Source: an uncultured bacterium (GTDB lineage: Bacteria > Krumholzibacteriota > Krumholzibacteriia > JACNKJ01). Taken from it: a stretch of DNA of 64,000 nt. Under the pieces are notes generated by a model, which was not told where the DNA came from, did no database searches, and saw only the letters and a program-made list of their open reading frames with translations. The stretch spans positions 6,196 to 70,195 of the forward strand of contig CAYFNT010000019.1 in NCBI GenBank assembly GCA_964344565.1, read 5' to 3'. Both the position numbers and the translations under genes were made by a program. Shown one piece after another: positions 18,683 to 57,485 of this stretch; positions within the stretch are counted from its first letter, which is position 1, and each line of letters begins with the position of its first letter.

Positions 18683-20441
18683 TTACTTCAGTTTCACGAC
18701 CCTGCCCGACTCCACGCCCTTGGAAGTCTCGAGGCGATAGAGGTAGAGGCCCGCGGGCAGATCGCGGCCCTTCCAGACCAGTCGATGCTCGCCCGCCCCG
18801 CGTCGTCCCGCTTCCACGGTGTCCACGCGGCGTCCGGTGACGTCGAAGATGTCCAGTCGCAGGTTCTCTTCGGCGGACAGGTTGAAGCGGAACTCGGTTT
18901 CGGTCACGAAGGGATTGGCCGAAACACGGAAGCCGCCGAGGGTGCTCTCGGGCAGGTCCGTGCTCTCGTTCACATAGAGTTCGTAGTAGAAGCTGTCGTT
19001 GGCGCTGTTCTCGTCACCGGGCAGGACGGTCCATGCTTCCATGTGGTACCAACCCGCATACTCGATCACGGTCTCCGCGACGATCACCGTGTCGACCCGA
19101 GCGAAATCGATGTCGATCATCGTCATGCCGTTGCCCATGCCGCCGCCCGCGAAGTGCAATTCCACGCCGACGGCGTCCTGCACGCCATAGTTCGAGGCGA
19201 GCACCTTCCAGCGCAGGGTGTCGCCGATGACCCACATCTGATCGGCGCTTTCTCTCGGTTCGTGAAACCCCAGCACGCCCACGTCCAGGCCCGGCGGTTC
19301 GGTCGAGCCTGGTGCGCGCATCATGCGGTCGACGCCGAACTTGCAGAGGTAGCATGTGACCCAGCTCATGTCCTCGGTGACGGGATCGGTGCTCTCGGCC
19401 ACGATGCCGCCGTCGTCGTCGGTGTCGTAGGACAGCAGGGCGTCGGTGATGAGGGCCCCGAAGAAGGCATGGTTCGGGTTTCCCTCCACGTCGGAGACCG
19501 CGAACTGCGCGTTGGCGTAGGCCACGTTCCAGGCGCTGTCCCAGTCGTAGCCGGGCACGCTGTACCAGTCCTGCCAGGTCTGTAGATCATTTCCGTAAGC
19601 CGAGAGCCACTGGCGTCCATAGATGGGTTGATCGTCGAAGACGGTTTCACAGACACCCCAGAGCGCCGTACCGCTACTCATGGCCCAGTACTCGAGATTC
19701 AACCGGTTCGGCGGGTCCACGTTGAGATAGTCATGCACGTCCCAACCTTGGGCCAAGGCTTGGACCTGCATGGTCGGATCGGCCAGGGCCGTGGCGTATT
19801 GGCTCAGGTTGCCTGCGCACCATCCCTTGACGAAGAGATCCAGGCGCTGTTGCCAGACCGTGCCGTCCCAGATGTTCAGGGGGTTGTCCATGATGTACTG
19901 GGCGCAGGTCTCGGCGTACCAGTCATAGCTGTCGTCGCCCGTGGCATCCTTGTATTTGAGCACCGCCGTGAGTCCCCAGGCGCAGTTGTGGGCGCGGTAG
20001 TAGTTGTCGCCGGCCGAGCCCTCCTCTTCCCATGCGGGGAAGTTGGTGCAGTAGACCCAGGCCGCGTCGATGTTGTCGTCGTAGGTGTCTCGGCCGCTGA
20101 ACTCACGGTAGCGCGACCAGCACCATATGGCCTCCAGCGTGTTGTCGGTCTGGATGACGTCGCCGAGATAGCCGTCCTCCGCCTCGATCATGCCGCCGTA
20201 GTCGGTGGAGTCGGGATCGAGCAATTGCCAGGCGGCCAGGAACTCGACGATCTGGTCGAACTCGCGAACGTAGTTGAAGGGACCCAGGGGCGGAGGCATG
20301 TCGCGTTCGCCCTGGGGACCGCCCATGATCCAGGCGTCCCAGTCTGCGAAGGGATCGGTGTTTGGGTCCGGTGCGGGGGATTGGGCGAGTGCCGGAAGGG
20401 CGAAGAGGGCAAGGCAGATTGCGAGCAGTACTCGACGCATG
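18683..20441 (-). CDS. Secreted protein with a T9SS-type C-terminal sorting domain. The N-terminal domain is of unknown function.
   Basis: Signal peptide MRRVLLAICLALFALPALA after an AAGGAGG RBS. The C-terminus LRLDIFDVTGRRV...GLYLYRLETSKGVESGRVVKLK matches the Por_Secre_tail/FlgD-Ig-like CTD pattern. The Trp-rich N-terminal domain is unassigned. Confidence 0.75.
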
Positions 20442-20483
20442 GCAGGGCCTCCTTGGAGGAGGCAATTGTAGCACAAAGCGATC

Positions 20484-20528: not shown

Positions 20529-21770
20529 TCAGTCCTCAGTCCGCAGATTTGAGTTCAATATCTCCGCCAGCTTGCGCGCGTTAGCGACCATGTCGTACTC
20601 GGATTCCACGGTCTTGCGGGCGGCACGCGCAGCGCTCTCTCTCGCTTCGGGATGGCTGAGCGCGAAGCTCATGGCCTCGGCGATGGCCTCGGGACTGGAG
20701 CTGTCCACCAGCCATCCGCTGCTGTTCTCGGCGACCAGCTCGGGCAGGCCCGTCACCCTGGGCGCGAGCACGGGCGTGCCGCCGGCCATGGCCTCCATGA
20801 CGGCCACGGGAATGCCCTCGCTGTGGCTGGTGAGTACGAAGAGATCGGCCTCGGCGATGAGCCCCGCGATTTCGCCGTGATCCAGAAGACCGAGGAAGTG
20901 CACGCGGTCGGCGATGCCGAGGTCCTTCGCCATCGTTTCGAGCATGGCGCGGCGGCCGTCCTGATCCTTGCCGACGAGGTCCAGGCGGAACCCGATGCCC
21001 CGCTCGGCGAGAATGCCGCAGGCCGCGAGCAGTCCTTCGTGATTCTTGATGGCGTAGAGGGAGGCCGTGCAGAGAAGCTTGAAGGGGCCCTCACGCCGGG
21101 CGACGCGCTCGCGGTAGGGGAAGTCGTCCAGCAGGATGCCCGTGCGATTCACGAAAATCTTCGAGCCGTCGACATCAGGGCGGAGCTCCATCATCACGCG
21201 CTTGTTGTAGTCGGACACGGCCACGATGAAGTCGGCCGCGCCCACCTTGCTCCGCAGGCTGAAGCGGCTGGGTTCGTGGACGGTGGCACTGCCGTGGGCG
21301 GTGAAGCTGAAGCTCTGGCCGTTGAGCTTCGCGGCGGCCAGGGCGGCCGTGGCCGCCTTGTAGGCGAAGTGGGCGTGCACGTGGGCGTCTTCACCTTTGA
21401 TCGCCCGCGCGAACGCGATGCCGTGGAGCATGTGCGCCACGCCCTTGATGCCCTTGCTCAGCCGCTGAGTTCTGTTGTCGAAGGGGACGCGCAGCAGAAG
21501 ATTCAGGAGGGCGAGGGGCCTTCGGACCAGATAGTGAAATGCGGCGCCGAGGAGTCGGCCGGGGGGCACGGGCCGCAGGGTGCGCGTGCGTTCGAGAAAG
21601 GGACGGGCCTCCTCGGGACAGTACTCGTGGGGCAGGAGGGACCAGATCTCGATCCGGAAGCCGGCTTCCTCGAGCACGCGGATCTCGTTGTAGACGAAGT
21701 TGAGGGTGTTGGCGGGAAAGCGCTCGATCACATAGATCAAACGTTTGCCACTGGACTTCTCGCCGGTCAT
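20529..21770 (-). CDS. Glycosyltransferase family 4 (GT-B)
   Basis: C-terminal EGIPVAVMEAMAGGTPVLAPRVTGLPELV motif typical of glycos_transf_1. Confidence 0.8.
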   Translation of the reverse strand: MTGEKSSGKRLIYVIERFPANTLNFVYNEIRVLEEAGFRIEIWSLLPHEYCPEEARPFLERTRTLRPVPPGRLLGAAFHYLVRRPLALLNLLLRVPFDNRTQRLSKGIKGVAHMLHGIAFARAIKGEDAHVHAHFAYKAATAALAAAKLNGQSFSFTAHGSATVHEPSRFSLRSKVGAADFIVAVSDYNKRVMMELRPDVDGSKIFVNRTGILLDDFPYRERVARREGPFKLLCTASLYAIKNHEGLLAACGILAERGIGFRLDLVGKDQDGRRAMLETMAKDLGIADRVHFLGLLDHGEIAGLIAEADLFVLTSHSEGIPVAVMEAMAGGTPVLAPRVTGLPELVAENSSGWLVDSSSPEAIAEAMSFALSHPEARESAARAARKTVESEYDMVANARKLAEILNSNLRTED

Positions 21771-21956
21771 GCCTAGTTTCCCCCCGCGCCGAGAACCTCA
21801 AGGATGGAAGGCGCGATTGTTGCATAGGCTTTCCGGGCTGGCAAGAAGGCAGCGAGACGGGCGCCGGAAGCCCTTGACCGGTTTTCAGAATCGCGCTTAC
21901 TATCGCGAAACGAAGGACTTAGCCCTCTGCCGCCGCCGGCCGAACGGGATGGGGAC

Positions 21957-22775
21957 ATGCCGATTTTCTTCTTTCGAAACGATGACGTGAACATCCTGGA
22001 CAGGGAACTGGTCGAGGTGACGGCCCGCTGCACCGAGCAGGGCGTTCCCATCAGCCATGCGGTGGAACCCGCCAACGTCACCGACGAGGCCGTCGCCTGG
22101 CTGAGGGAGGAGAAGGCCAAGGATCCTCGGCTCATCGAGATCACCCAGCACGGATACGACCACGAGCTGCGTGACCGTGGAGAGTTCGGCGGCGAGCGCG
22201 GCTTCGAGGACGCGCGAGACGACCTCGTCAAGGGCCGCGACATCCTCCTCGACAAGTTCGACGGCGATTTCCTCTCGGCCCTCAATTTCCCCTTCGGCAT
22301 CTACAACCAGAACGCCATGCGGGCCGCCGACGCGACGGGCTTCCGCATCATCTGCGCGCACTTCAACGCGCGGAAGTCGCGGCGGGCCATGTACACGGTG
22401 GGGCGCGCGCTGCGAATGGGGCAGATCCTCGGCAAGCACGTGTCGCATCACCTCGACTTCTATCCCAAGACGGGCATGTTCTCGGTGGACGTGTCCATCA
22501 GCTTCATCGATCGCTACATCGGCCCTCACGGAAGCAACACCTGCACATTCCACTCCCTGGACGAGATCAAGCGTCGCGTGCAGATGTGGATGCCCCACAC
22601 GCCGGTGATCGGACTGCTCCTGCATCACCGCTTCCATCACCAGGCCGAGCATCTCGATCTGATCAGCCGGGCCATCGAATGGCTGAAGACCATCGACGGC
22701 GCGGAATTCCGGAACATCGAGGAAATCTACGAGCGCTTCTGTCCCGAGCCGGGCAGCGGTTTTCGCAATGGCTGA
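21957..22775 (+). CDS. Polysaccharide deacetylase-like protein (CE4-like), tentative
   Basis: FFFRNDDVN start and an HGYDHE motif, seen in deacetylase-family proteins of EPS loci. Not well resolved without a search. Confidence 0.5.
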   Translation: MPIFFFRNDDVNILDRELVEVTARCTEQGVPISHAVEPANVTDEAVAWLREEKAKDPRLIEITQHGYDHELRDRGEFGGERGFEDARDDLVKGRDILLDKFDGDFLSALNFPFGIYNQNAMRAADATGFRIICAHFNARKSRRAMYTVGRALRMGQILGKHVSHHLDFYPKTGMFSVDVSISFIDRYIGPHGSNTCTFHSLDEIKRRVQMWMPHTPVIGLLLHHRFHHQAEHLDLISRAIEWLKTIDGAEFRNIEEIYERFCPEPGSGFRNG

Positions 22776-23940
22776 TCGCGCGCAGATCGTCTGCTTCGGC
22801 GGATACGACTACTGGTACAGCAACCCCGGCAGTCCCGTGCAGCTCATGGAGGCCGCGCATCGCGCCGGCCACAAGGTGCTCTGGGTGAACAGCATCGGCA
22901 TGAACATGCCGCGCATGCGCCGGAGCGGGTTCTGGCGTCGCGTGGGCCTGAAGCTGCGGAGCTGGTCGCGCTGGCTCAAGGCGGCCCACCCCGACTTCCA
23001 CGTGCTGTCGCCCATCATCCTGCCCCTATTCGGAATATCGGCGCTGGAGCGCATGAACGAGCGTTGGCTGGCCTTCCAGGTGAAGCTGGCCTATCGCATA
23101 CTCGGACTGAAGCAGCCCATGGTGATGGTCTGCCTGCCCTCCTTCGCCGAGGTGGCCACCTCGCTGCCCAACGACGGGCTCATCTACTACCTCACCGACA
23201 AGTTCGAATCCTATCGCGATCTGAAGGCGCGCGATTCCATGATGGCGCGTGACCACCTGCTCAAGGAAAGGAGCGACCTCTTGCTCTGCTCCTCCCGAAA
23301 GATCCAGGAGGATCTCGCGCAGTTCGACGGCAAGGTGAAGTACTTCCCCCACGCCGTGGATTCGTCGCGCTACGACGAGGCGCTGGCTTCCGGCGCCGAG
23401 GAACCCGCGGATCTGGTGGCCATACCCCATCCGCGCATCGGTTACTTCGGATCCCTGACCAACGCGAACAACCTGGACCTCATCGAGTACTGCGCCACCG
23501 AGGATACGAAGCTGCAGTTCGTGCTCATCGGCCGGGTGATGGGGGATTATTCGCAGGTGGAGAAGTTGCCCAACGTGCATCTGCTCGGCATGAAGGACTA
23601 CGAGGAGATTCCGCTCTACGGAAAGCACTTCGACGCGGGCATCATGACCTGGCGGCTCACCGAGTGGATCCGCTACTGCAGTCCCATCAAGACCAAGGAG
23701 TACCTGGCCCTCGGCCTGCCCGTGGTGTCGGTGCCCATCGCCGAGCACGACAAGGAGTTCAACGGATTCGTGGAAACGGCCGAGGACGGACCGCAGTTTC
23801 TGGCGGCCATCCAGAGAGCCTTGGCCGGCGATAGCGAAGAGAAGCGCGCCGCCCGTCGCGATCGGGTGAAGGGCGAGAGCTGGGATCGCAGTTTCGGCGA
23901 GATGATGAGCATGCTCGGGGAGCGTCGACGTGGCCATTGA
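22768..23940 (+). CDS. Glycosyltransferase family 4 (GT-B)
   Basis: KTKEYLALGLPVVS C-terminal GT1/GT4 motif. Overlaps its neighbours by a few nt, suggesting an operon. Confidence 0.75.
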   Translation: MADRAQIVCFGGYDYWYSNPGSPVQLMEAAHRAGHKVLWVNSIGMNMPRMRRSGFWRRVGLKLRSWSRWLKAAHPDFHVLSPIILPLFGISALERMNERWLAFQVKLAYRILGLKQPMVMVCLPSFAEVATSLPNDGLIYYLTDKFESYRDLKARDSMMARDHLLKERSDLLLCSSRKIQEDLAQFDGKVKYFPHAVDSSRYDEALASGAEEPADLVAIPHPRIGYFGSLTNANNLDLIEYCATEDTKLQFVLIGRVMGDYSQVEKLPNVHLLGMKDYEEIPLYGKHFDAGIMTWRLTEWIRYCSPIKTKEYLALGLPVVSVPIAEHDKEFNGFVETAEDGPQFLAAIQRALAGDSEEKRAARRDRVKGESWDRSFGEMMSMLGERRRGH

Positions 23941-25285
23941 GATTCCGCGCATCCTGAAACGCCCCGCCATGCGCCTGGTGGACTTCGCGCGCAAGACCGA
24001 CTCGCTCAAGCTGCTGCCCGAACTCATGGAGACCCAGTGGTGGAGCCTCGCCAGGCTCGAGGAGCTGCAGGCTCGGCGCATGTCCATGCTCGGACGCTTC
24101 GTACGCGCCGAGGTGCCCTACTGGCGCGAGGCCTTCGCGAAGGCCGGCATCGCGGAGACCGAGGATCTGACTCCAGAGAGCATCGCCCGCCTGCCCCTTC
24201 TGTCCAAGCACATGATCCGCGAGGCCGGCGACGCCCTCAGGTCCGCGAGCTTCGACAAGTGGCAGCCCCGACACAAGAACACCTCGGGTTCCACCGGCGT
24301 GCCATTGGACTACTACATCGACCGCCCGGCCCACAGCTGGCAGTGGGCGCACATGTGGCGGGGATGGGCCCAGACCGGCTATGTGCCCGGCGATCTCTAC
24401 GCATCGATCAGCGGCGGTTCGCTGGTGCCCGAGAAGGCGGCCATCAAGCAGTCGGCCTACATGGCGCTTTCCAGCGGCCTGCACTTCCCGACCTACCACA
24501 TGAACGACGAGATCATGGAGCGCTACGCCGTGCGGCTGGTGAGGAGCCCGGTGAAGTTCGTCTACGGGTATCCGTCGAGTCTGGAGATCTTCTCGGAGTA
24601 CATCACGGCCAGCCCGCGGGGGAAGATACCCATGCAGGCCGTGTTCACCACCAGCGAAGGGCTTTCGCCCAAGGCCCGTGCGGCCATCGAGGCGGCATTC
24701 GATTGCGAGGTCTTCGACACCTACGGTTGCAACGATGGCGGAATCTTCAGTTTCGAGTGCGAGCGGCACGAGGGCATGCACATCGGCATGGAGACCTGCT
24801 TCGTGGAGATCGTCGACGAGAAGGGCCGGCGCGTGCCCGACGGCGAGCCCGGCGAAGTCATCGCCACGAATCTGGTGATCAGGGCGATGCCGCTTCTGCG
24901 CTTCCGCACGGGGGACATCGCGATCCTCACCCGCGACAAGTGCGAGTGCGGGCGCGGATTGATCCGCGTGCAGGAACTGTCGGGGCGCGAGCGGGACGTC
25001 ATCCGCACCCCCGACGGGCGCAAGATCCACGGCGCCTTCTTCACGCATTTCGAGGCGCTTCACCACGCCGACTGGATCAACCGCTTCCAGATCCATCAGC
25101 CCGACCTGAACACCTTCATCCTGAGGGTGCAGCTCCGCCGCGAGCCCACGGAAGAGGACCGCCAGTCGGTCCTTCGCGACCTGCGTACCGCCTTGGGCGA
25201 CATGGACTTCCGCATCGAGGTCGCCGACGAGATGATGCTCACCCGCACCGGCAAGTTCAGGATCATCGTTTCCGACCTGAGCTGA
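23930..25285 (+). CDS. Phenylacetate-CoA ligase-like adenylate-forming enzyme (PaaK/CapK/F390 synthetase family)
   Basis: TSGSTGVP P-loop and a YGCNDGG motif, about 450 aa. This family recurs in capsule/EPS loci. GTG start. Confidence 0.75.
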   Translation: MAIEIPRILKRPAMRLVDFARKTDSLKLLPELMETQWWSLARLEELQARRMSMLGRFVRAEVPYWREAFAKAGIAETEDLTPESIARLPLLSKHMIREAGDALRSASFDKWQPRHKNTSGSTGVPLDYYIDRPAHSWQWAHMWRGWAQTGYVPGDLYASISGGSLVPEKAAIKQSAYMALSSGLHFPTYHMNDEIMERYAVRLVRSPVKFVYGYPSSLEIFSEYITASPRGKIPMQAVFTTSEGLSPKARAAIEAAFDCEVFDTYGCNDGGIFSFECERHEGMHIGMETCFVEIVDEKGRRVPDGEPGEVIATNLVIRAMPLLRFRTGDIAILTRDKCECGRGLIRVQELSGRERDVIRTPDGRKIHGAFFTHFEALHHADWINRFQIHQPDLNTFILRVQLRREPTEEDRQSVLRDLRTALGDMDFRIEVADEMMLTRTGKFRIIVSDLS

Positions 25286-25380: not shown

Positions 25381-26829
25381 ATGATGATGACGTTGAGACT
25401 GTCCTTGCTCGCCATCGTAGCGCTCGTGATTTGCTTCTCCGGAACTCGCGCGGAAATCATCCACGTTCCAGGCACCTGGGACACCATCGCCGAAGCTCTC
25501 GCCGACGCCGTGGCCGGCGACGAGATCGTCATCGCCTGCGGTACCTACTACGAGAGGTCGCTGCAGATGAAGGACGGCGTCACGATCCGAAGCAGCACGG
25601 GCGATCCTTCCTGTGTGACCATCGACGCGGAGCAGGTTTCGGAAGTCTTCCTCGCGGACACTATCGGCGACACATCGGTGCTCGAGGGTCTGACCATTTC
25701 GGGAGGCTATGCGGCCGACGGGGCTGGCATCCATATCTCGGATGCGTCTCCCACGATCAGGGACTGTGTTTTCATCGACAACGATGCCGGTTGGGGCGGC
25801 GCCATGGCGGTCTATTATTCCTCCTTTCCCGAGATCACCGACTGCGTTTTCGACAGCAACGAGAGCTGGTTCGACGGTGGTGCCGTTCTTTGCATCGATG
25901 GGGCGCATCCCGTGTTCACGGATTGCGTCTTCGAATCCAACTACTCCTCCAGCGATGGCGGAGCTTTGAGTGCGAACAACTGCAGCGTCACGCTCTCGAG
26001 CTGCACCTTCGACGACAATGTGGCCGATGATCATGGGGGCGCGGTCTCGGTCTGGAACGACAGCAACGGCACGGTCACCGATTGCGATTTCAACGGGAAC
26101 GAGGCCGGCAAAGGCGGCGGTGGGTTGATCTGGAGCTTGTGCGTGAGCGGCCTGCTCGATGATTGCCGATTCTACGACAACACGGCGGACTACGGGGGTG
26201 GGCTCTACTGCTTCGTTGCCTCGCCCTCCGTGATCGGCTGCGAGTTTTCTTCGAACAATGCCGTTCCCGGCACTTGGGGGGATGGCGGAGGTTTCTACTG
26301 CGAGACCTTCGTGTCCTCGACCTTCGAGAATTGCACGTTCTTCGAGAACTCAGCGGTAGCGGGAGGCGGCGCCTACATCGATATCGACTGCGATCCCGAG
26401 TTCATCAACTGCACCTTCTACAGGAACACGGCGTCGGCCATCGGCGGCGGATTCTGCACTTGGGATACGGGCCATCCCATGCTCACCGGCTGCATCATCG
26501 CCTCCAGCCTCTCGGGCGGCTCGTTCTATTGCGGGAACGAAACGGTCGGGGCGACGCTGAACTGCTGCAATGTTTTCGGCAACGCAGGCGGCGATTGGAT
26601 CGGCTGCATCGCCAGCCAGCTGGGCGAGGACAATTTCTCGGCCGACCCGCTTTTCTGCCTCACGCCACCCTTCAGCATGTTCCCTCAGACGGGGTCGCCC
26701 TGTTTGCCTGGAAATCACCCCAATGGCGAAGACTGCAGATTGATCGGTGCCCTGGGCGAGGACGCAAACTGCGACGGGCAGCCCGTCCGCAGCGAAACGA
26801 CCTGGAGCAGCCTGAAGACGATGTACTGA
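25381..26829 (+). CDS. Secreted right-handed parallel beta-helix (PbH1-repeat) protein, paralog 1, with the C-terminal TWSSLKTMY tail
   Basis: Signal peptide MMMTLRLSLLAIVALVICFSGTRA. Many CxFxxNxAxxGGA(L/V) repeats and a conserved Cys-rich region SPCLPGNHPNGEDCRLIGALGEDANCDGQP. Ends in TTWSSLKTMY. Confidence 0.75.
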   Translation: MMMTLRLSLLAIVALVICFSGTRAEIIHVPGTWDTIAEALADAVAGDEIVIACGTYYERSLQMKDGVTIRSSTGDPSCVTIDAEQVSEVFLADTIGDTSVLEGLTISGGYAADGAGIHISDASPTIRDCVFIDNDAGWGGAMAVYYSSFPEITDCVFDSNESWFDGGAVLCIDGAHPVFTDCVFESNYSSSDGGALSANNCSVTLSSCTFDDNVADDHGGAVSVWNDSNGTVTDCDFNGNEAGKGGGGLIWSLCVSGLLDDCRFYDNTADYGGGLYCFVASPSVIGCEFSSNNAVPGTWGDGGGFYCETFVSSTFENCTFFENSAVAGGGAYIDIDCDPEFINCTFYRNTASAIGGGFCTWDTGHPMLTGCIIASSLSGGSFYCGNETVGATLNCCNVFGNAGGDWIGCIASQLGEDNFSADPLFCLTPPFSMFPQTGSPCLPGNHPNGEDCRLIGALGEDANCDGQPVRSETTWSSLKTMY

Positions 26830-26908
26830 TGATTGCTTGATCCTATTCCAGCCTGGGTCTAGTGTCTGATCCACCTCGTTGTGAAGACTCGCAATCCGGA
26901 GGATCAGG

Positions 26909-28267
26909 ATGAAGAGAATCGCCCTGCTCGCAGCAGGCTCCATCGCGCTCTCATTTCACCCCCTTCGCGCCGAGATCATCTCGGTTCCCGGCGACCATCC
27001 CACCATCGCGGAGGCCCTGACGGCCGCCGTCTACGGCGACGAGATCGTCATCGCTGCCGGCACCTATCCGGAGGGCGGCCTCTCGCTGAAAACGGGCGTC
27101 ATCATCCGCGGCGCGACGGGCAACTACACCCACGTGATCGTCGACGGCGAAGACGCCCAAACGGTCTTCTTCGCCGAGGGCGTCGACGGCTCCGCGGAAC
27201 TGCGAGATCTCACGGTGACCGGCGGGTCCGGAGCCAACGGCGGCGGACTGCGCTGCTGGGTCGCATCGCCGACCATCGCCAACTGTCGATTCCAGGGGAA
27301 CGCCGCCGACAACGGGGGCGCCATGGCCATCCAGCTGGGGTCCTCTCCGTCGATCACGAATTGCCGCTTCGAGAGCAATCAGGCCACATGCTGCGAGGGC
27401 GGGGCGCTCTATATCGAGAACAACAGCTCGGTCCAGATCTCCGGCTGCGACTTCGAGGGGAACATCGGCCGCAACGGAGGCGGTATCCACGTGCAGACCA
27501 CAGACCTCACCCTCGTGGATTGCCTCTTCGAAGTGAACACGGCGACCTTCAATGGGGGCGGCGTCAACGCCGGCACGGGCAGCAGCTGCGTTCTCATCGA
27601 CTGCGTGTTCCAAGAGAACGGGGCCGGCGTCGGCGGCGGGGCCGTGGCGAGGGCCGTGGCGACCCTGGGCGATATCACCGACTGCTTCTTCGAGGGAAAC
27701 ACGGCGGACTACGGCGGTGCGCTCTTCTGCCGGAACGTCGTGTTCAACGTGACCGGCTGCCAGTTCCTGGGGAACATCGCCGCGCCGGGCTACGACGGCT
27801 ATGGGGGCGCGGTCTTCTGCGAGTCCAATGCCGATCCCTTATTCGAGAACTGCACCTTCTACGCCAACTCGGCGGTGGAAGGAGGCGCGCTCTACGCGGA
27901 ATCCAACTGCAGCCCCGGATTCACGAACTGCATCATCGCCTTCGGCGCTGGAGGGGGAGCGGTGGCCTGCGAGAGCGGCCTGCGGACGATACTGCTGGAC
28001 TGCTGCGACCTCTTCGGCAACGTCGGTGGCGACTGGACCGGCTGCATCGCCGGACAAGACGGCGGCACGAACTTCTCGGCCGATCCGCTGTTCTGCCCGA
28101 CGCCGCCGTCCAGCCTGTGGCTGCAGACCGGGTCGCCCTGCCTGCCGGGGAATCATCCCAATGCGGAAGACTGCGGACTCATCGGCGCACTGGGCGAGGA
28201 CGCCGACTGCGACGGGCAGCCTGTCAGCGCCGTGGAGACCTGGAGCACCTTGAAGAGGATGTACTGA
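26909..28267 (+). CDS. Secreted right-handed parallel beta-helix protein, paralog 2, with the C-terminal TWSTLKRMY tail
   Basis: GGAGG RBS and signal peptide MKRIALLAAGSIALSFHPLRA. Repeats and C-terminal Cys-rich region like paralog 1. Ends in ETWSTLKRMY. Confidence 0.75.
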   Translation: MKRIALLAAGSIALSFHPLRAEIISVPGDHPTIAEALTAAVYGDEIVIAAGTYPEGGLSLKTGVIIRGATGNYTHVIVDGEDAQTVFFAEGVDGSAELRDLTVTGGSGANGGGLRCWVASPTIANCRFQGNAADNGGAMAIQLGSSPSITNCRFESNQATCCEGGALYIENNSSVQISGCDFEGNIGRNGGGIHVQTTDLTLVDCLFEVNTATFNGGGVNAGTGSSCVLIDCVFQENGAGVGGGAVARAVATLGDITDCFFEGNTADYGGALFCRNVVFNVTGCQFLGNIAAPGYDGYGGAVFCESNADPLFENCTFYANSAVEGGALYAESNCSPGFTNCIIAFGAGGGAVACESGLRTILLDCCDLFGNVGGDWTGCIAGQDGGTNFSADPLFCPTPPSSLWLQTGSPCLPGNHPNAEDCGLIGALGEDADCDGQPVSAVETWSTLKRMY

Positions 28268-30550: not shown

Positions 30551-30880
30551 ATGCCCAAATTGCCGCGGTCCGACGCCGCACTTCAGGCCCTGGCGCAGCG
30601 ATTCAAGCTGCTTGCCGAACCTGTCCGTCTGAGGATCCTCGAGATCCTGGCGGAGGGGGAGAAGTCCGTCCAGGAAGTCACCGCCGCCTCGGGCCTGCGC
30701 CAACCGCACATTTCCCGCCAACTTGCGATACTCGCCGAATCCGGCGTCCTCCTTCGACGTAAGGAGGGGACTCGCGTATACTACTCGCTCAGCGATTCCC
30801 ATATTTCCGCGCTTCTGGACGCTGCCGGCCGCTCGCTCCGCGAGCACCTCACCGGGCGTCTGGAGCAACTGGAGGAATGA
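30551..30880 (+). CDS. ArsR/SmtB family transcriptional regulator
   Basis: LLAEPVRLRILEILAEGEKSVQEV...SRQLAILAESGVL winged HTH, 109 aa. The stop overlaps the start of the M16 peptidase gene (ATGA). Confidence 0.85.
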   Translation: MPKLPRSDAALQALAQRFKLLAEPVRLRILEILAEGEKSVQEVTAASGLRQPHISRQLAILAESGVLLRRKEGTRVYYSLSDSHISALLDAAGRSLREHLTGRLEQLEE

Positions 30881-33800
30881 TGAAGAACCCTCTGATTCCC
30901 GTTATCGTCGTCCTGGTCGTCCTCGCCATGTTCATGTTGGTGTTCAAGTCCGGCGGGGATGGGCTGGAGAGCCTCGAGCATGGCCAGGTCATCCACGGTT
31001 TCGCCGTGGAGAATCTTTACGTGGACGGTGCCGATCGGGCCATGGGCGCGCGCTTCATCTCCGAGGAGAAGGGCTTCATCGTCGACCTGCTTCAGATCCA
31101 GTCGGTGCCCCAGGGATTCATCTGGGTGAAGAGTCCGCCGGATTCCGATCGCGGCGAACCCCACGCCTGCGAGCATCTGCTTCTGGGCAAGGGTCGTCAG
31201 GGACGCTACGTGGCGGCGCTGGAGGCCATGACCCTCGGCAACGCCAGCGCCTGGACCGCGCAGACCAACACGGTCTACCACTTCAACACCCTGGGCGGTG
31301 AGGAGAACTTCTTCGCCACCTTCGAGGCGCGGCTGAACGCCCTGGTGAATCCCGATTTCACCGACGAGGAGATTCGCCGCGAGATCGTCCATCTCAGCGT
31401 GGTGGAGGATGCCGGCGGCGAGTTGGGCCTCGAAGAGAAGGGTTCGGTCTACACCGAGATGGTGAGCAGTTTCGAGGGACCGGGCTATCCGCTCTGGGGC
31501 GGCGTGGGCGACATGCTCTTCGGCAAGGACCATCCCCTGGCCAACAGCTCCGGCGGACATCCCGACTCCATGCGCAGCATGACACCCGAGCACATGCGCG
31601 ACTTCGTGGCGGATACCTACCGGCTTCCGAACATGGGCATCATCGTGTCGGTGCCCAGAAGCTTCGAGATGGAGGATCTGCTCGAGGAGTTCGAAGGCAT
31701 CCTCGATCGCGTGCAGCCGGGCAAGCTCGAGAGCGATTTCGTAGGCATGAACGCCCTGAACCTTCCCCCGATCACCGACGCCGATCCCGAAGGCGCCGTG
31801 CGCATCGCCGCCTACCCCAGCGACAATCCCGAAGATCCCGGGGAGGTGCTCGTGGTCTGGCCGCCTCGGGATCCTCTGGCGAACTTCGACCGCTTCATGC
31901 TGGAGACCTTCCTGGACGGTTTCGCGGGCGGCCCCGGCACCGAGCTTTACGACCTCTTCATCAATTCCGAAACACGAAAGGTGGAGCTGGGAGCCAGCGC
32001 CGTATGGAGCTACGTGCCCGAGGAGCCCGGCTCGCCGGTCTTCTTCGGCCTGGACGGCCTGGACAACCGCAACATCGAGGGACGCAGCCTGCGGAGGGCG
32101 CGGGGGCTCATCGTGGAGGAACTGCACAAGCTCTACGAATTGGAATCGGGTTCGGAGGAGCTGGACGACTTCAACGATCGCGTGTCCAGCAATCTCGTGC
32201 AGACCCGCAAGTACCTCGAGCGCGCCTTGAATTCGCCGCCCCAGTTCGGCTTCCGCATGAGCGGCATGGCCAGACGCTGGCAGGACATCATGGCCTTCCT
32301 CGAGCTGGACGAGGGATTCCGCAAATCCCTGGTCATGGACTCGCATTTCGTCCGGGCCGAGGAACTCCTCGCCGGCGATGAGAACTTCTGGCAAGAGCTG
32401 CTGGATCGCTGGGGCCTGCTCGATGCGACGCCATACGTCATGGCGGTGCATCCGGATCCCGGCATGCTGTCGGCGGCCGAGGAGGCCAAGCGGGCCCGTC
32501 TGTCCGCGGCCATCGAGGGGATGAAGGACCGATTCGACGAGGATGAGGCCCAGGTTGCCCTGGCCAGGTTCCGCGATGAGTTCGATGCGAACACGGCCGA
32601 ACTCGAGGCCATCGCCGCCGAGGAGACCCTTCCCGGATTCATGGACGATCCGCCCATGGAGATTGACGAGCAGCTCCGGTACGAGACCGTGGCACTTCCG
32701 GGCGGGGCTGAGATGGTGGCCGCCACCTTCGAGAACATGAGCACTGCGACCCTGCAGGTCAGTTTCGGCCTTCAGGCCGTACCCAGCGACAAGCTCGTCT
32801 ACCTGCCCCTGCTGCCCTACCTCATGCGTGGCGTGGGCGTGGAACTGGACGGCGAGCGCATCGAGTACGACGACATGGAGAAGCGTCTGCGCGCGGAGCT
32901 CCTGTCCTACCGGGCCGACCTGACCACCAATCCCGAGACCGGCCGCGCCGAGTTGGTGTTCAGCTTCGGCGCCAGCAAGCCCGACGAGATCGATCGCGGT
33001 TTCGAGTGGATGCGCGCCTCGCTCACCGCGCCGCTGCTCGACGGGGACAACCTGTCCCGCATCGGCGACCTGCTCGACCAGCGCCTGCACCGCATGCGTA
33101 CGCGCATGCAGGGCAGCGAGGAATCCTGGGTGAGCGATCCGGCCGCGGCCTATCGCTACCAGGACGATCTCCTCTATCTCAGCGCGGGATCCTTCCTCAC
33201 CCAGACCCATCAGCTGCTTCGACTCAAGTGGCGCTTCACCGAGCCCGACGGCGAGGGCGAAGCGTATCTGGACGAGCTCGAGCGGCGCGGCCGCGACGCC
33301 TCGCGCGAAGAACTCTTGGCCCTGCTCGACGGAGCGCCGGAGGAAGGCATCCGGGCGGACCTCGCCTCCTCCCTTCGGTCGAGTCTCCCGGCTCTGCCCG
33401 ACGCCTCGATATCCGATGATTGGGCGCGGCTCTGCGCCACACTGCGCAGCGAGCTGGCCACGCCGCCGGATCAGGCCTTCACCGACCTGCGCGCTTTGCT
33501 GGACCTGTTGGCCCGCGCCGAGAATGCCCGCCTGTCCCTGGTGTCCAACTCCCGGGATCGCGGCGAGAAGCTCGGCGTCATCGAAGCCTTCCTGGCGGAC
33601 TTCTCCGGCAAGGGGGCGCCGGCCGCACAGAAACACCACCGTCGGGACTACGTGCTGGATCGCTATCGCGAGCGCAGCGGCATGACGGACAAGCCGATCT
33701 ACGCGGGACTCGTGAATGAGAACACGCGCAACGGCACCCTCATCTTCTCAGCCCGCATGGCCGAAGCCTGGCAGGCCGACCGCGAGTCGGCCCTCAACGC

Positions 33801-37003: not shown

Positions 37004-37387
37004 ATGCCCCGTCCCCCCGTCGAAAAGACCATTCCCGCCGATCTCTCCGAGCGCGTCTTCAAGCCCCGCGGATTGCCGGCGAGCCGGGCCGAGCGCGTGG
37101 AACTGTCCCTGGACGGACTCGAGGCCCTGCGCCTGGTGGACCTCGAAGGGCTCTACCAGGAGGCCGCCGCCGAGCGCATGGGCGTTTCGCGGGCCACCCT
37201 GTCACGGGTCCTGGAAAAGGCGCGACGGGCGGTGGCCCTGGCACTCGTGGAGGAACGGATGCTCGTGGTGGAGGGCGGAGACGTGCGCCGCAGCAGGCGC
37301 AAGCGCTGGCCCTGTCCGGTCCACGGGCAAGGGCAGCGTCGCGGCCGAGGCTGCCGCTGCGGAGGAAGACATGGAAAGGAGGCCTAG
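37004..37387 (+). CDS. DUF134/UPF0251 family DNA-binding protein (sigma-70 region-4-like HTH)
   Basis: LSLDGLEALRLVDLEGLYQEAAAERMGVSRATLSRVLEKARRAVALALVE, a classic DUF134 signature. This family is often found next to NifX/NifB-like Fe-Mo cofactor-domain genes. Confidence 0.75.
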   Translation: MPRPPVEKTIPADLSERVFKPRGLPASRAERVELSLDGLEALRLVDLEGLYQEAAAERMGVSRATLSRVLEKARRAVALALVEERMLVVEGGDVRRSRRKRWPCPVHGQGQRRGRGCRCGGRHGKEA

Positions 37388-37498
37388 ATGCCTGGACGTG
37401 ACCGAAGCGGTCCCCAGGGCAAGGGGGCCCGAACCGGCAGGAGCGAAGGCTCCTGCGGCAGCGAGAATCTCATCATCTGGAATCGGAAGGACAGGAAA

Positions 37499-37939: not shown

Positions 37940-38136
37940 CTCAATGCCGTAAGCGAGGGGCAATCGCAGCGCCCCTCGTGCTGCCCCTGCCCGATCCCGG
38001 TTCACAGCGAAGCCCGGGGTCGGGCTTTTCGATGCAAATCAAACCGCTCGTTTCGGGGAAGTGCCGCGTCGTTCGACTCGGCTTTTCCGTTGAAGATCAG
38101 CCCCGCGAGCGTCTATACAGGTCGTGGAGGTCCTCC

Positions 38137-43921: not shown

Positions 43922-45409
43922 CTACTTGATGAGCACGAGCCGGATGATCTCCGATCCCTCCCCGGCCCGGATGCGGCAGAAGTAGACGCCGCTGCTCCGG
44001 TCCCGGCCGAGCTCGTCGCGGCCGTTCCAGTCGAGAGTGATTCTCCCCGGGCCGGCATGCTCATCCAGAAGAGTCGCGACCCTGCGTCCGGAGATATCGA
44101 AGATCTCCACGACCGCATGGGCGGGTTCTTCGAGACCGAATTCGATACGCGTGCTCGGATTGAAGGGGTTCGGGGCGGCGCTTGCGGCGAATTCCTCGCG
44201 GTTCATCGATCCGCAGGCTCCCCAGGCTCCCATTAGGCCGCAATCGTTGTTGTCGGGCAGGCAGGGGGAGTCGGGTTGGAGGAAGGGACGATAGTCGAAG
44301 GTCGTGCAGATGAGCGGATCCTCGCAGATATTGCCGTCCACGCCGAGGAGCTCGAGGATCACCGGCGTCCAATCTCCGGCTGGGTTTCCGAAGAAGTTCG
44401 AACAGGAGATCAGCGGCGGATCGTCGAGCCAATACTGGTAGATGGCCTGTCCCTGGATCGATCCAGCGATCAGACACTTGTCGATCTCGACATAGGCCTC
44501 TTCGGTGATGCCGATGTTGCCGCCTCCGGATACGACATTGCCGAAGAAACTGCAGCTCTCGACGCGGTGCACTCCCAGATCCAGCAGAACCGTGCTGCCG
44601 CTGTATCCGTCGTTTGCGACGAACGTGCATCCCAGGAGAGTTCCCCGGCACTTGTTCAGACTGATCGCGTGTCCGCCAGCCCAACCGTAGTTGTCGTAGA
44701 AGATGCAGTCCTCGATCAGGAGTCTGCCGGAATCGTGGGCGGCCACGCCGCCTGCGTTGATCGTCCGGTTTCTCTCGAAGAGCGAAGCGCCTATCCGACC
44801 TCGACTGCCGCTCGTCACCGCCACGGTTCCCCAGCAGCCCTGTTGGTGGTGGCCGTTTTCGATGAATCGACAGTTCTGAATGTCGACATGCGAGTCGTTG
44901 ACGAAGCAGATGGCAGATCCGCCGGTACCCGCCCCGGCGATGTTGTTCATGAAGAGGGTATCCTCGATGCGGGGACGCGATTCGCTGAAGAAGAGGCCGC
45001 CGCCGGGGCTTTCGCTGCGGTTGTCGAAGATGACGCAGTTTCGAATCGTCAGTGAGGATTCAGTGAATCGGCCGGCGCCTCCGTGGAACTCGTCCGCGTG
45101 CGTGAAGGTGATTCCCTCGATGAGGGTGCTTCCGTCCAGGCCGACGCCTCGAATGCAGTAGCCTTTATCCATGGCGTCGACGGTGACGCATTCGGGATCG
45201 CCGGAACCGCTCCGCAGCGTGACGCCGCTTTTCATCTCGAGGTGGAATTCCTCGTAGATGCCGCAGGCCACCTGGACGGTGTCCCCCCGCTCGGCCAGTT
45301 CGATGCCGGCCTGGATGCTCGGCGCATCCGTTGGAACGTGGATGATCAGGGAGTTCGCCGGAACGGCGCAGAGCATCAGGATCGATAAACGAGTCAGGGT
45401 CTTTCGCAT
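43922..45409 (-). CDS. Secreted right-handed beta-helix protein, paralog 3, carrying a T9SS-type C-terminal sorting domain
   Basis: Signal peptide MRKTLTRLSILMLCAVPANS. PbH1-like repeats and a Cys-rich region homologous to the 25381 and 26909 proteins (NFFGNPAGDW...DSPCLPDNNDCGLMGAWG). C-terminus EIFDISGRRVATLLDEHAGPGRITLDWNGRD...GVYFCRIRAGEGSEIIRLVLIK is a T9SS CTD. Confidence 0.75.
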   Translation of the reverse strand: MRKTLTRLSILMLCAVPANSLIIHVPTDAPSIQAGIELAERGDTVQVACGIYEEFHLEMKSGVTLRSGSGDPECVTVDAMDKGYCIRGVGLDGSTLIEGITFTHADEFHGGAGRFTESSLTIRNCVIFDNRSESPGGGLFFSESRPRIEDTLFMNNIAGAGTGGSAICFVNDSHVDIQNCRFIENGHHQQGCWGTVAVTSGSRGRIGASLFERNRTINAGGVAAHDSGRLLIEDCIFYDNYGWAGGHAISLNKCRGTLLGCTFVANDGYSGSTVLLDLGVHRVESCSFFGNVVSGGGNIGITEEAYVEIDKCLIAGSIQGQAIYQYWLDDPPLISCSNFFGNPAGDWTPVILELLGVDGNICEDPLICTTFDYRPFLQPDSPCLPDNNDCGLMGAWGACGSMNREEFAASAAPNPFNPSTRIEFGLEEPAHAVVEIFDISGRRVATLLDEHAGPGRITLDWNGRDELGRDRSSGVYFCRIRAGEGSEIIRLVLIK

Positions 45410-45494
45410 TTCAACCGCCCTTTCCCACATCAGTCTGATTATGTAGCTATTCTAGCAGCTTCCTCCCTTCGGGTAAACCGGCCCAGTATTCAAT

Positions 45495-56281: not shown

Positions 56282-56866
56282 CTAGTACAATGTCTTCAGA
56301 TGCTCCCAGGTCGTGCTCTCCGTGCTCGTCCATCCGCTGAGCAGGATGATGTTGCAGGGCTCGTAGCCGCAGGCGAAGGCCATGAGGTCCGGGGCCGGCT
56401 CCTGGCAGACGTCGTGGTCGATGTCCCAGGCCTGGAAGGTGTGCAGGAAGATGCGCTCCTCCAGCAGGAATCCGTCGCCCGCCGCATCGGCGTAGAGAAG
56501 GCAGTGGAAGCCCGGATTGCCGCAGCAATCGATGCAGAGGGCCCAGTCCGCCCAGTTCTCGCCGAATAGCGGATGATCCAGCCAGGGATCCGGCCAGTAG
56601 GTGTCATAGATGCTCGTGTCGGTCCCGTACATGTGGAAGTAGGTCTCGTAGCAGAACCAGCAGGTTCCGCCGAGGCCGAAGTGGAGTTCGGTGATCCATT
56701 CGGATCCCGAATCGGGAACGAGCACCATGCGCACCGTGGCTTCGGACTCCTCGGTGAACTCGTTGATGGTGTAGGGATCGTCGTCGGTGTCGATGTCCAG
56801 CAGGATCTGGTAGGCGCCCGCGGGAATCGAGACCAAGAGTAGCAGAATCGCGATAGTCAGTTTCAT
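56282..56866 (-). CDS. Small secreted Cys-rich protein, tandem paralog 1, with the C-terminal TWEHLKTLY tail
   Basis: Signal peptide MKLTIAILLLLVSIPAGA, then GGTCWFC, CIDCCGNPGFHC, AFACG and PCNII motifs. Confidence 0.6.
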   Translation of the reverse strand: MKLTIAILLLLVSIPAGAYQILLDIDTDDDPYTINEFTEESEATVRMVLVPDSGSEWITELHFGLGGTCWFCYETYFHMYGTDTSIYDTYWPDPWLDHPLFGENWADWALCIDCCGNPGFHCLLYADAAGDGFLLEERIFLHTFQAWDIDHDVCQEPAPDLMAFACGYEPCNIILLSGWTSTESTTWEHLKTLY

Positions 56867-56885
56867 GCCGACTCCTTTCCGCGTG

Positions 56886-57485
56886 TCAGTAAAGTGCCTT
56901 GACCAGTTCCCAACTGGTCTCCATGGATGCCTGTCCCGGTACGGATGAAAGGGGCGAGCTCAGGTTGATCACGTTGCAGGGCCCCCCGCAGGCGAAGGCC
57001 ATGAGGTCGGGGGGCGGTTCCTGGCAGATGTCATGGTCGATGTCCCAGGCCATGAAGTCGCGAAGGAAGATCCGCTCCTCCAGATAGAATCCTCCGCCCA
57101 CGGCCTCGGCCGAGAAGAAGATGTGGTAGCCCGGATTTCCGCAGCAGTCGATGCAGGTGGCGCCGCCCATTTCCGCATTCTCGAATAGAGGATGCTCGAG
57201 CCATGGCTCGATGAAGGCGAAGAGCTCGCAGTCGGTGCCGTACATGTGGAAGTAGTCCTCGAAACAGAACCAACAGGTTCCTCCCAGACCGAAGTGGATG
57301 ATGGATATCCATTCTCCATCTCCCTCCGGAGCCAGGATGAGGCGAACGAGGGCCTCTGCTTCGGGGGTGGATTCGTTGAGGGTGTAGGGATCGTCGTCCA
57401 GATCGATGTCGAGCAAGATCTGAAAAGCAGCGACCGGGACGGCGGTGAAGATCAGGCATATGAGCAAGACGAACAGTTTTTTCAT
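56886..57485 (-). CDS. Small secreted Cys-rich protein, tandem paralog 2, with the C-terminal SWELVKALY tail
   Basis: Signal peptide MKKLFVLLICLIFTAVPVAA. Cys pattern as paralog 1 (GGTCWFC, CIDCCGNPGYH, AFACGGPCNVI). Confidence 0.6.
   Translation of the reverse strand: MKKLFVLLICLIFTAVPVAAFQILLDIDLDDDPYTLNESTPEAEALVRLILAPEGDGEWISIIHFGLGGTCWFCFEDYFHMYGTDCELFAFIEPWLEHPLFENAEMGGATCIDCCGNPGYHIFFSAEAVGGGFYLEERIFLRDFMAWDIDHDICQEPPPDLMAFACGGPCNVINLSSPLSSVPGQASMETSWELVKALY

Follow-up and report, generated by a model that had tools for sequence, protein, structure and literature searches.

The window, a stretch of 64,000 nucleotides from an uncultured bacterium of the Krumholzibacteriota, contains four genes (A, B, D, and E) whose products each carry a Sec-type signal peptide, read from the sequence, and terminate in W-x-x-[LV]-K-x-[LM]-Y directly before the stop codon, as the first-pass annotation had claimed. 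The coordinates of these genes and of the features discussed with them are collected in Table 1. The A and B proteins have in common the beta-helix Pfam matches PF13229 and Chlam_PMP, with A returning Beta_helix at 2.1e-23 together with Chlam_PMP repeats; the shorter length given for A is that of its gene call on the public contig, and a protein identical to B is found in public assemblies. Neither D nor E has a match in Pfam or NCBIfam, and the AF2 model of D is a beta-sandwich. The D/E gene pair is located between leuS and mutY, an arrangement kept in a related MAG.

[quoted passage not shown] The exchange of the tail for a T9SS domain that had been proposed for this paralog was confirmed: C holds the CTD at the junction where A and B hold the tail. 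The CTD of the 597-aa protein was detected with FlgD_ig (2.4e-6, aa 528-585) and with a CTD HMM built in this analysis, and the presence of this T9SS cargo in the window indicates that T9SS signals and the tail are both used by the organism. The polysaccharide-type genes directly upstream of A and B are context and lie outside the tag. These gene families also flank the beta-helix genes of other MAGs, tail-bearing and CTD-bearing alike.

Table 1. Coordinates of the tail proteins, their tail modules, and associated features in the window.
Feature	Coordinates	Strand	Description
Protein A	25384..26829	+	Exported right-handed beta-helix, 481-490 aa, C-terminal tail ...ETTWSSLKTMY (ORF and translation)
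Tail module of A	26782..26826	+	PVRSETTWSSLKTMY; stop codon 26827-26829
Protein B	26909..28267	+	Exported beta-helix paralog, 452 aa, 49% identical to A, tail ...VETWSTLKRMY
Tail module of B	28220..28264	+	PVSAVETWSTLKRMY; stop codon 28265-28267
Protein C	43922..45430	-	Beta-helix paralog, 34% identical to A; T9SS type A CTD replaces the tail
T9SS type A CTD of C	43925..44176	-	About aa 419-502; TIGR04183 1.5e-7 (31.3 bits, cutoff 23), FlgD_ig 1.3e-5
Protein D	56282..56866	-	Exported Cys-rich beta-sandwich, 194 aa, tail ...TTWEHLKTLY
Tail module of D	56285..56329	-	TSTESTTWEHLKTLY; stop codon 56282-56284
Protein E	56886..57485	-	Paralog of D, 199 aa, 61% identical, tail ...TSWELVKALY
Tail module of E	56889..56933	-	QASMETSWELVKALY; stop codon 56886-56888
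Second T9SS-CTD cargo protein	18683..20476	-	597 aa; CTD at about 18686-18934
Polysaccharide-biosynthesis-like genes	20529..25285	.	GT4, 272-aa ORF without match, GT4-like, CapK-like adenylating enzyme

A six-frame scan of the whole window with a looser pattern of the motif gave seven matches, four of which are the ends of A, B, D, and E. From the amino acid composition of the window, 1.5e-5 ORF ends with the motif are expected, and the probability of finding at least four among 52 is approximately 2e-21, so the recurrence is well beyond chance. The tail codons of the window genes vary at synonymous sites and the DNA 3' of them is unrelated, which places the conservation at the level of the peptide and rules out a DNA-level repeat as the source of the tail. 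The stop codon of B abuts a convergent ClC gene and mutY ends 17 nt from that of D, leaving no room for a hidden downstream domain.

While the shared C-terminal motif stood, the nonapeptide originally taken as its unit did not: conservation spans about 15 residues instead of 9. In its broad form the module reads (T)PVEx-T-[ST]-W-G-x-[ILV]-K-x-[LM]-[YF]-(R)-COOH, with ...PVExTSWGxIKxxYR as the widespread form. The window tails are a lineage variant missing both the Gly after the Trp and the final Arg, and the tail of A is alignable with canonical ...TWGxIKxxYR tails. The Trp and the Lys are essentially invariant, the latter lying 4-5 residues from the end; conservation also extends to Gly+1, Ala+5, and the P-V-E upstream, the conserved P-[VT]-E being part of a short linker that runs into the T-[ST]-W-G core. 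Constraint is found at nearly all positions, with the exception of +2, and this is more readily reconciled with a peptide bound in the groove of a protein than with a generic membrane helix. The ends of the tails vary (Y, YR, or YR followed by 1-13 residues), and a C-terminus without a fixed register argues against readers of the free carboxylate. In D, the W, K, and Y of the tail are kept in 14 homologs, and AF2 places the tail as a helix behind a disordered linker, unpacked on the domain, at a low pLDDT of about 50. A helix was also predicted for a C-terminal fragment of A, in a model too poor to use (mean pLDDT 45.7).

The MAGs that carry the tail are labelled Eisenbacteria, Krumholzibacteria, Latescibacterota, and Gemmatimonadetes; it is also present in many metagenomes. 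A set of 80 loci from related genomes, whose ORFs total approximately 525,000 aa, yielded 70 occurrences of the motif, none farther than 20 residues from the C-terminus and 64 no farther than four; the loci were seeded with the beta-helix family, which biases these counts. Metagenome DNA was scanned without such bias for codons of W-G-A-I-K-A-[LMI]-[YF]-[RS], representing only the commonest tail spelling; among the matches listed, the stop codon follows directly in 109 of 127 and within 13 residues in 126 of 127. The tag is common: it ends 4 of the approximately 52 genes of the window, and at least 120 metagenome contigs carry the one spelling scanned.

Portability of the module, first suggested from the unrelated passengers in the window, was borne out by 179 tail proteins from related MAGs and metagenomes, which fall into at least 58 passenger clusters unrelated by BLAST. 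By a crude heuristic, signal peptide-like N-termini are present in 81% of tail ORFs vs 36% of other ORFs (Fisher 4e-26), the enrichment that a sorting tag had been expected to show, and the same heuristic gives 75% for T9SS-CTD ORFs. Most of the 53 non-beta-helix cluster representatives have no Pfam match; the domains detected among the remainder are cohesin, CHRD, PKD, CBM_20, CBM_4_9, Laminin_G_3, LTD, DUF11, pectate lyase, and Cleaved_Adhesin. Domains of these kinds are characteristic of surface or extracellular proteins. One tail protein resembles an anchoring scaffoldin in having three cohesin repeats, and two match NCBIfam NF038128, "choice-of-anchor J" (1.8e-12). Judged by sequence, the putative tag is widespread in uncultured relatives of the Bacteroidetes, on dozens of unrelated exported proteins. 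The tail is retained while passengers diverge to 40-50% identity, and this retention, together with the synonymous codon differences, indicates selection on the peptide. Presence of an Arg after the aromatic residue shows a within-genome agreement of 0.875 (permutation p<1e-4), and genome-specific tail variants are common to unrelated passengers, which fits co-evolution with one trans-acting reader, although intragenomic copying of the module could also explain such variants.

Replacement of the tail by other C-terminal signals extends beyond protein C. A rough tree of 80 beta-helix sequences contains about 23 switches between tail and CTD, and the distant D/E homologs P0013-15 and P0017 have FlgD_ig CTDs instead of the tail. 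Among the best 150 representatives of DUF7901, about 48 end in the tail, five in a T9SS CTD, and three in a hydrophobic helix followed by RRRR, the last with weak, sub-threshold NCBIfam matches to PEP-CTERM/MYXO-CTERM-type ends; all three kinds of end align to one junction. Homologs with different signals at one junction, the pattern that defines "choice-of-anchor" proteins, are therefore found in the beta-helix, D/E, and DUF7901 families. Tail and CTD never occur on one protein (none among 68 tail ORFs and 110 CTD ORFs), and the loci are shared. Its substitution for the T9SS CTD and for PEP-CTERM-type anchors at a shared junction of homologs makes the tag an alternative to both.

The tail had not been recognized among the C-terminal sorting tags already described, and the database comparisons agree: no Pfam or NCBIfam model matches it in A, B, D, E, and 63 other tail proteins. 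NCBIfam sorting models gave no match at E<=10 to ten canonical tails or at E<=1 to 53 tail proteins; LPXTG, GlyGly-CTERM, and MYXO-CTERM models are absent from the NCBIfam matches of the 63 tail proteins and of A, B, D, and E, and the T9SS CTD models TIGR04183, PF18962, and FlgD_ig do not match the window tail proteins or the 63 others. The tails fall outside the definition of PEP-CTERM (TIGR02595 and its subfamily models). A profile search of PDB sequences found no chain with the tail, the best match (E=0.2) being internal, and Foldseek found no significant match to the D model. Literature searches with motif strings, and with Eisenbacteria, Latescibacteria, and T9SS combined with C-terminal signals, found no description of the tail. 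When approximately 1,235 ORFs from 200 loci were clustered, no partner gene consistently adjoined the tail genes, and the families near them were only common ones, e.g., kinases, GT4, and PP2C-like proteins. Pfam scans of ten neighbors gave nothing envelope-specific (sulfatase, peptidase S9, a DUF5916/CBM9 protein, and similar), and no exosortase-, sortase-, or rhombosortase-like genes were seen near tail genes in the loci examined. The sequence SWGxIKxxYR was also considered as an element upstream of FlgD-type T9SS domains; this was rejected, with no internal occurrence in the approximately 525,000 aa and no protein with both.

Among described signals, those of PEP-CTERM/exosortase and its kin (MYXO-CTERM, GlyGly-CTERM, LPXTG) resemble the tail in being portable tags swapped among homologous passengers, and the DUF7901 tail stands at the exact site of the P-x-P, hydrophobic helix, and RRRR of its relatives. 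Both have a Pro-containing motif ahead and often a basic residue last. In about 20% of tails E-P-[ST]-[ST] precedes the Trp, a likeness to PEP-CTERM that is superficial only. Polysaccharide-synthesis genes often adjoin PEP-CTERM systems, as they adjoin A and B. Unlike PEP-CTERM, the tail has no transmembrane helix, its hydrophobic stretch being eight residues with a central Lys, and it has one Arg or none in place of a basic cluster.

The tail probably serves Sec-exported proteins as a portable C-terminal tag, an address or an anchor, of a class uncatalogued so far; its sorting function is inferred from its position, the type of cargo, and the swapping with anchors. As it stands where related proteins carry known sorting signals, a sorting or anchoring route not yet described probably lies behind it. 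In the proposed mechanism, the signal peptide would carry the passenger across the inner membrane, and the tail, as a short free helix of approximately 8-10 residues on a flexible linker, would be bound by a conserved component of the envelope whose gene lies elsewhere in the genome; a protein receptor, an anchor, or a subunit of a translocon is the most likely candidate. Binding would fix the location of the passenger, by retention at the cell envelope or surface or by delivery there. More tentatively, uncultured FCB phyla (with the labels Eisenbacteria, Krumholzibacteria, and Latescibacterota) may possess an undescribed sorting or surface-anchoring pathway with its own receptor or translocon, parallel to T9SS and exosortase, that reads only a soluble peptide of approximately 10-15 residues and needs neither a folded domain nor an anchor that spans the membrane.

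The tail could instead bind the membrane directly, as a short interfacial amphipathic helix that would keep exported proteins on the periplasmic face of a membrane with no protein receptor, which we regard as unlikely. The W, I/L, L/M, and Y/F residues would lie on one wheel face, flanked by K and R and with an S/T N-cap ahead; AF2 predicts a helix, the interfacial partitioning, with helix formation counted in, is estimated at about -4 to -5 kcal/mol, and no dedicated neighbor gene was found. The tail shares with the MinD MTS and the PBP5/DacA anchor its shortness, its C-terminal position, a helical prediction, and Lys/Arg on the flanks of aromatic and aliphatic residues. However, its amphipathicity is unexceptional (muH 0.34-0.60, matched in 10-25% of shuffled versions of the peptide), and the affinity predicted for a lone nine-residue helix is weak. 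The MinD MTS and PBP5 helices are loosely conserved and family-specific, whereas the tail retains its Trp, Lys, and linker across unrelated families, and the invariant Trp/Lys with the conserved Gly+1, Ala+5, and P-V-E exceed what membrane binding needs. Furthermore, the cargo domains and the swapping with surface-anchoring signals indicate the cell surface rather than the periplasm.

It is decidedly unlikely that the tail acts via T9SS, either as a minimal mimic of the CTD end read by PorV or another component, or by docking on CTD cargo. T9SS CTD cargo is also encoded in all tail-bearing lineages seen, frequently within the loci of the tail genes. The two signals have in common the extreme C-terminus of Sec signal-peptide proteins in FCB-group bacteria, the same passenger families, loci, and junction, and a basic residue close to the end, and the last residues of many members of both are hydrophobic-hydrophobic-Arg/Lys. 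In the type A CTD a near-invariant Lys of functional importance, located close to the C-terminus, contacts PorV (PMC10994853); the Lys near the end of the tail recalls it, although without alignable context. T9SS recognition buries about 1,850 A2 of the folded CTD (PMC10994853), a surface that a 10-residue helix cannot offer. The CTD is a folded beta-sandwich of approximately 70-100 residues, and the tail a peptide of approximately 10-15 residues predicted to be helical, with no profile similarity between them and no model match; hhalign of the tail against CTDs from the same loci gave a probability of 0.2%. At the position in question the CTDs of these loci mostly have Arg, not Lys, and the terminal residues of tails and CTDs do not co-vary between genomes, with tails ending in Y and CTDs in K in the lineage of the window. 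The hhalign result and the lack of co-variation lead us to reject the tail as the terminal strand of a CTD.

PDZ proteases read C-terminal ends with an aromatic residue, and the tail is strictly C-terminal with an aromatic at or beside its end. It might accordingly be a degron or processing signal, recognized by a periplasmic C-terminal protease or PDZ protein (Prc/Ctp- or DegS-like), that would govern how long exported proteins last or how they mature and not where they go, but this is very improbable: the distance from motif to carboxylate varies (Y, YR, YRxx...) where PDZ recognition needs a fixed register, conservation reaches about 15 residues upstream, and a degron leaves the systematic swap with surface-anchoring signals unexplained. 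That the tail is no functional tag at all (a chance likeness, an annotation artefact such as a truncated gene or a hidden domain further downstream, a DNA repeat, or the last element of a shared passenger domain) is scarcely credible, short as the motif is and few as were the four sequences of the first observation, since this is already contradicted by the chance probability in the window, the retention of the motif in dozens of families and hundreds of contigs, the codon differences with unrelated DNA and no space downstream, passengers without detectable similarity, and the detachment of the tail from the domain in AF2.

If the tail is a sorting signal, as we favor, it would represent a targeting route absent from curated resources, in phyla accessible only through metagenomes, and would be the shortest known transferable envelope tag of diderms without a membrane-spanning segment or folded domain. 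It would provide a localization call for thousands of "hypothetical proteins" and, through phylogenetic profiling against the tag, a handle for finding the machinery; it would also bear on the evolution and exchange of sorting signals and possibly on protein display. Even for a mere membrane-binding helix, a curated model would improve the annotation of FCB-group MAGs.

Two further likenesses are more limited. The beta-signal of outer membrane proteins also has an aromatic at or beside the C-terminus of exported proteins, but it needs a beta-barrel, whereas the tail passengers are soluble beta-helices and beta-sandwiches and the tail is predicted to be helical, often with Arg or more residues after the aromatic. 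The dockerin helix reads ...[ST][ST]D-x-x-x-L-K-[RK]-Y-L..., and its possible likeness to T-S-W-G-x-I-K-x-L-Y is a lead only. Some tail proteins carry cohesin repeats, and the D model has weak cohesin/CBM3-like fold matches (E about 1e-2, below significance). Unlike a dockerin, the tail has no Ca-binding loop, no duplicated segment, and no match to Pfam Dockerin. True dockerin-like loops do occur in these metagenomes, separate from the tail.

The pattern W-x-x-[LV]-K-x-[LM]-Y stands directly before the stop codon of four ORFs of the window, encoding the beta-helix proteins A and B and the small paralogs D and E, and a Sec-type signal peptide can be read from the sequence at each N-terminus (4/4). 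A six-frame scan of the whole window with a looser pattern gave only seven matches, four of which are the ends of A, B, D, and E. From the amino-acid composition of the window, 1.5e-5 motif-bearing ORF ends would be expected, and the probability of at least 4 of 52 is ~2e-21. The first-pass annotation had described four secreted proteins with near-identical ends, and this is confirmed as written. Synonymous positions differ among the tail codons and the DNA past the stops is unrelated, the stop of B adjoins a convergent ClC gene, and 17 nt lie between the stop of D and the end of mutY; therefore, a DNA repeat as the source of the pattern and a hidden downstream domain are both ruled out.

Coordinates and features of tail-related and neighboring genes (window positions unless a locus is named)
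Feature	Position	Strand	Remarks
A, beta-helix	25384-26829	+	end …ETTWSSLKTMY
B, beta-helix	26909-28267	+	end …VETWSTLKRMY
C, beta-helix paralog with T9SS domain	43922-45430	-	
D, small paralog	56282-56866	-	end …TTWEHLKTLY
E, small paralog	56886-57485	-	end …TSWELVKALY
D/E tandem pair	56282-57485; L001 6939-8137		
Degenerate tails	L015:5187-6341, L031:13472-14410, L011:6432-7160; P0107, P0122, P0186		
Cohesin-repeat tail protein	L021:6992-8527	+	511 aa
Dockerin-like proteins	L128:1800-2591, L196:7388-8017		
Polysaccharide-biosynthesis-like genes	20529-25285		two GT4-type glycosyltransferases, 272-aa ORF without match, CapK-like adenylating enzyme with CapK_C
ArsR/HTH_5-like gene	30551-30880		
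Membrane protein	30877-34377		1166 aa
Phage tail sheath-like protein	34976-36445	+	489 aa; Phage_sheath_1C 5.8e-11, Phage_sheath_1 1.2e-5
Two small Arg/Gly-rich ORFs	37004-37939		
Molybdopterin oxidoreductase	37978-40149		
4Fe-4S/DmsC-like subunit	40017-41492		
Membrane Fe-S (CCG-type) protein	41762-43771		669 aa
Wzy_C-like gene	61470-62690		

A C-terminal tag that is widespread but uncatalogued takes, in the four window proteins, the form used by one lineage. When the C-terminal 113 residues of A served as query, ~30 metagenomic proteins were found, nearly all with the ending [ST]W[GA]x[ILV]Kxx[YF]R, and a scan of species-representative genomes with the resulting alignment yielded 293 confirmed matches. 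Most of the top 80 loci belong to MAGs annotated as Candidatus Eisenbacteria/Eiseniibacteriota, Krumholzibacteria, Latescibacterota, Gemmatimonadetes, or just "uncultured bacterium". The window lineage is also represented by MAG GCA_964410395.1, with conserved synteny. When 68 tails were aligned on the Trp, the module could be written as (T)-P-[VT]-E-x-T-[ST]-W-G-x-[ILV]-K-[AS]-[LM]-[YF]-(R), with practically no variation at the Trp and Lys and free variation at position +2 alone. Tyr is the last residue, without the Arg, in 9/9 tails of the window lineage (window and GCA_964410395.1), most of which also lack the Gly, and this variant is common to the unrelated beta-helix and D/E families. Genome-specific variants are likewise common to unrelated passengers, i.e., the protein parts preceding the tail (within-genome agreement 0.875, permutation p<1e-4). 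The tail peptide is under selection.

Degenerate tails were also encountered, with Tyr or Phe at the Trp position (…STYGGMKAMFR, …STFGGIKAIYK), or Leu in place of the final aromatic residue (…TWGQLKQLLR), and pattern-based counts therefore underestimate the family.

The tail is strictly terminal, portable, and found on exported proteins with surface-type domains. The genome loci were seeded with beta-helix genes and give family-biased counts; across their plausible ORFs, about 525,000 aa in total, the motif was found 70 times, always within 20 residues of the C-terminus (70/70) and in 64/70 cases within 4. Because of this seeding, 241 million metagenome records were also scanned, free of that bias, for the codons of a single tail spelling, W-G-A-I-K-A-[LMI]-[YF]-[RS], and at least 127 matches on at least 120 contigs were obtained. 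Among the 127 matches listed, a stop codon follows directly in 109 and lies within 13 residues in 126, compared with about 5% expected for a random in-frame position. The upstream sequences are very diverse: 179 tail proteins from the metagenome and genome sets fall into 58 BLAST clusters, which upholds the claim that the tail is a portable module on unrelated passengers. Among 53 non-beta-helix cluster representatives, most had no Pfam match, and the remainder included cohesin, CHRD, PKD, CBM_20, CBM_4_9, Laminin_G_3, LTD, DUF11, pectate lyase, and Cleaved_Adhesin domains. Enrichment of signal peptides among tail proteins, proposed earlier as a check, was found: by a crude heuristic, signal-peptide-like N-termini are present in 81% of tail ORFs and 75% of ORFs with a T9SS type A C-terminal domain (CTD), versus 36% of the rest (Fisher 4e-26).

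The tail is mutually exclusive and interchangeable with established sorting signals. Using an HMM built from local CTDs, we found a T9SS domain at the end of 110 ORFs in the genome loci and the tail at the end of 68, with no ORF carrying both, and the two kinds of ORF lie side by side within the same loci. A and B belong to the right-handed beta-helix proteins and contain Chlam_PMP-type repeats. C aligns to them end to end with 34% identity and, ~10 residues past the last conserved Cys, enters a type A sorting domain of the T9SS (TIGR04183 31.3 bits, cutoff 23; FlgD_ig), as the first-pass annotation had recognized. A rough neighbor-joining tree of 80 junction regions of the beta-helix family requires ~23 tail/CTD switches, a noisy estimate, and beta-helix genes that stand beside GT4 and CapK-like genes end in either the tail or the CTD, depending on the MAG.

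D and E match no Pfam or NCBIfam model, and their homologs are named "hypothetical protein" at NCBI. Homologs with 40-85% identity keep the tail, with the W invariant and the K and Y almost so; in more distant homologs a FlgD_ig-type T9SS domain takes its place, and two distant homologs end in SWGAIKRLYK and TWGAIKAQFRP. The D model, from an alignment of 19 homologs, is a beta-sandwich (mean pLDDT 73.7) in which the tail is predicted to form a short helix (residues 187-193) after a disordered linker, unpacked against the domain. This model gave weak CBM3/cohesin-like fold matches only (best E 9e-3, TM about 0.3). The D/E tandem pair lies between leuS and mutY, and this synteny is kept in a related MAG and several sequencing runs.

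A third family, DUF7901, brings in another kind of ending. Its tail-family profile, searched against 1.84 billion cluster representatives, gave 2,595 matches (E<=1e-3). Of the 150 best, ~48 have the tail as their ending, several more have close variants or short extensions of it, five a T9SS CTD (one attaining the TIGR04183 cutoff), and three have P-x-P, a hydrophobic helix, and RRRR; these last show weak NCBIfam similarity, below threshold, to the exosortase-dependent protein XDP1 C-terminal end and to MYXO-CTERM/PEP-CTERM-type models. The tail, CTD, and helix endings align at one junction. Two other tail proteins match NCBIfam "choice-of-anchor J". Judged by the operational choice-of-anchor criterion, the tail behaves as sorting or anchoring tags do. 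The claimed exchange with a T9SS domain is thus borne out in C, in the beta-helix tree, in distant D/E homologs, and in DUF7901. Some DUF7901 members end in …SSVKSLY, where the Trp is absent.

The first-pass annotation had not recognized the tail among described C-terminal sorting tags, and it is indeed outside every described class. Across the four proteins of the window and 63 other tail proteins, no Pfam or NCBIfam match extends over the tail, a PDB sequence search found no sequence with the tail, a full-text literature search found nothing on it, and the 68-tail alignment contains no transmembrane stretch or basic cluster. The suggested profile comparison with a known sorting domain rejected membership of the T9SS CTD (probability 0.2%). 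The tail fits the established idea of C-terminal sorting tags that are swapped between proteins, as a form not described before.

We infer a sorting or anchoring function, in which Sec would export the tail protein, one conserved envelope component encoded elsewhere would bind the tail, and this binding would set retention or delivery of the passenger. A protein is favored as the putative reader, because constraint extends over nearly all tail positions and the upstream P-V-E and because tail variants change in concert. The neighborhoods of tail genes contained no candidate partner gene. As a tentative proposal, the tail may serve a separate sorting pathway that has dedicated machinery, and we give this slightly less than an even chance.

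The tail might instead be coupled to T9SS, since its invariant Lys, 4-5 residues from the end, recalls the almost invariant Lys near the end of type A CTDs that contacts PorV (PMC10994853); however, T9SS recognition buries about 1,850 Å2 of folded domain, the tail and CTD profiles do not align, and tail endings do not co-vary with CTD endings. As another rival, the tail might anchor directly in the membrane; its hydrophobic moment is ordinary, being equalled by 10-25% of shuffles, and its predicted interfacial energy is just -4 to -5 kcal/mol. A PDZ-protease degron is disfavored because the free carboxylate lies at a variable distance from the motif.

Apart from binding by an envelope component, the origin of the tail can be considered. 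About 20% of tails (L010, L013, L015, L018, L031, L032, and others) have E-P-[ST]-[ST] before the Trp, resembling the PEP plus Ser/Thr start of PEP-CTERM signals, and MAFFT aligned P-V-E…W…K…YR of DUF7901 to P-T-P, hydrophobic helix, and RRRR. The resemblance may be a coincidence, or the tail may have arisen from a PEP-CTERM-type anchor by drastic shortening.

In the L021 protein, three cohesin-like repeats lead straight into the tail, so that it looks like an anchoring scaffoldin, and separate proteins with single terminal dockerin-like Ca-loop motifs are encoded on other tail-bearing contigs. These proteins hint at possible cellulosome-like assemblies in tail lineages.

The polysaccharide-biosynthesis-like genes are directly upstream of A and B, with the Wzy_C-like gene further along the window, and the beta-helix proteins may act on exopolysaccharide. 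The sheath-like gene is apparently alone, preceded by the ArsR/HTH_5-like gene and the 1166-aa membrane protein, which has no Pfam match; the sheath-like gene may represent either a remnant or a component of a contractile injection system. Between this gene and C lie the molybdopterin oxidoreductase, 4Fe-4S/DmsC-like, and CCG-type genes, with two small, very Arg/Gly-rich ORFs ahead of them.
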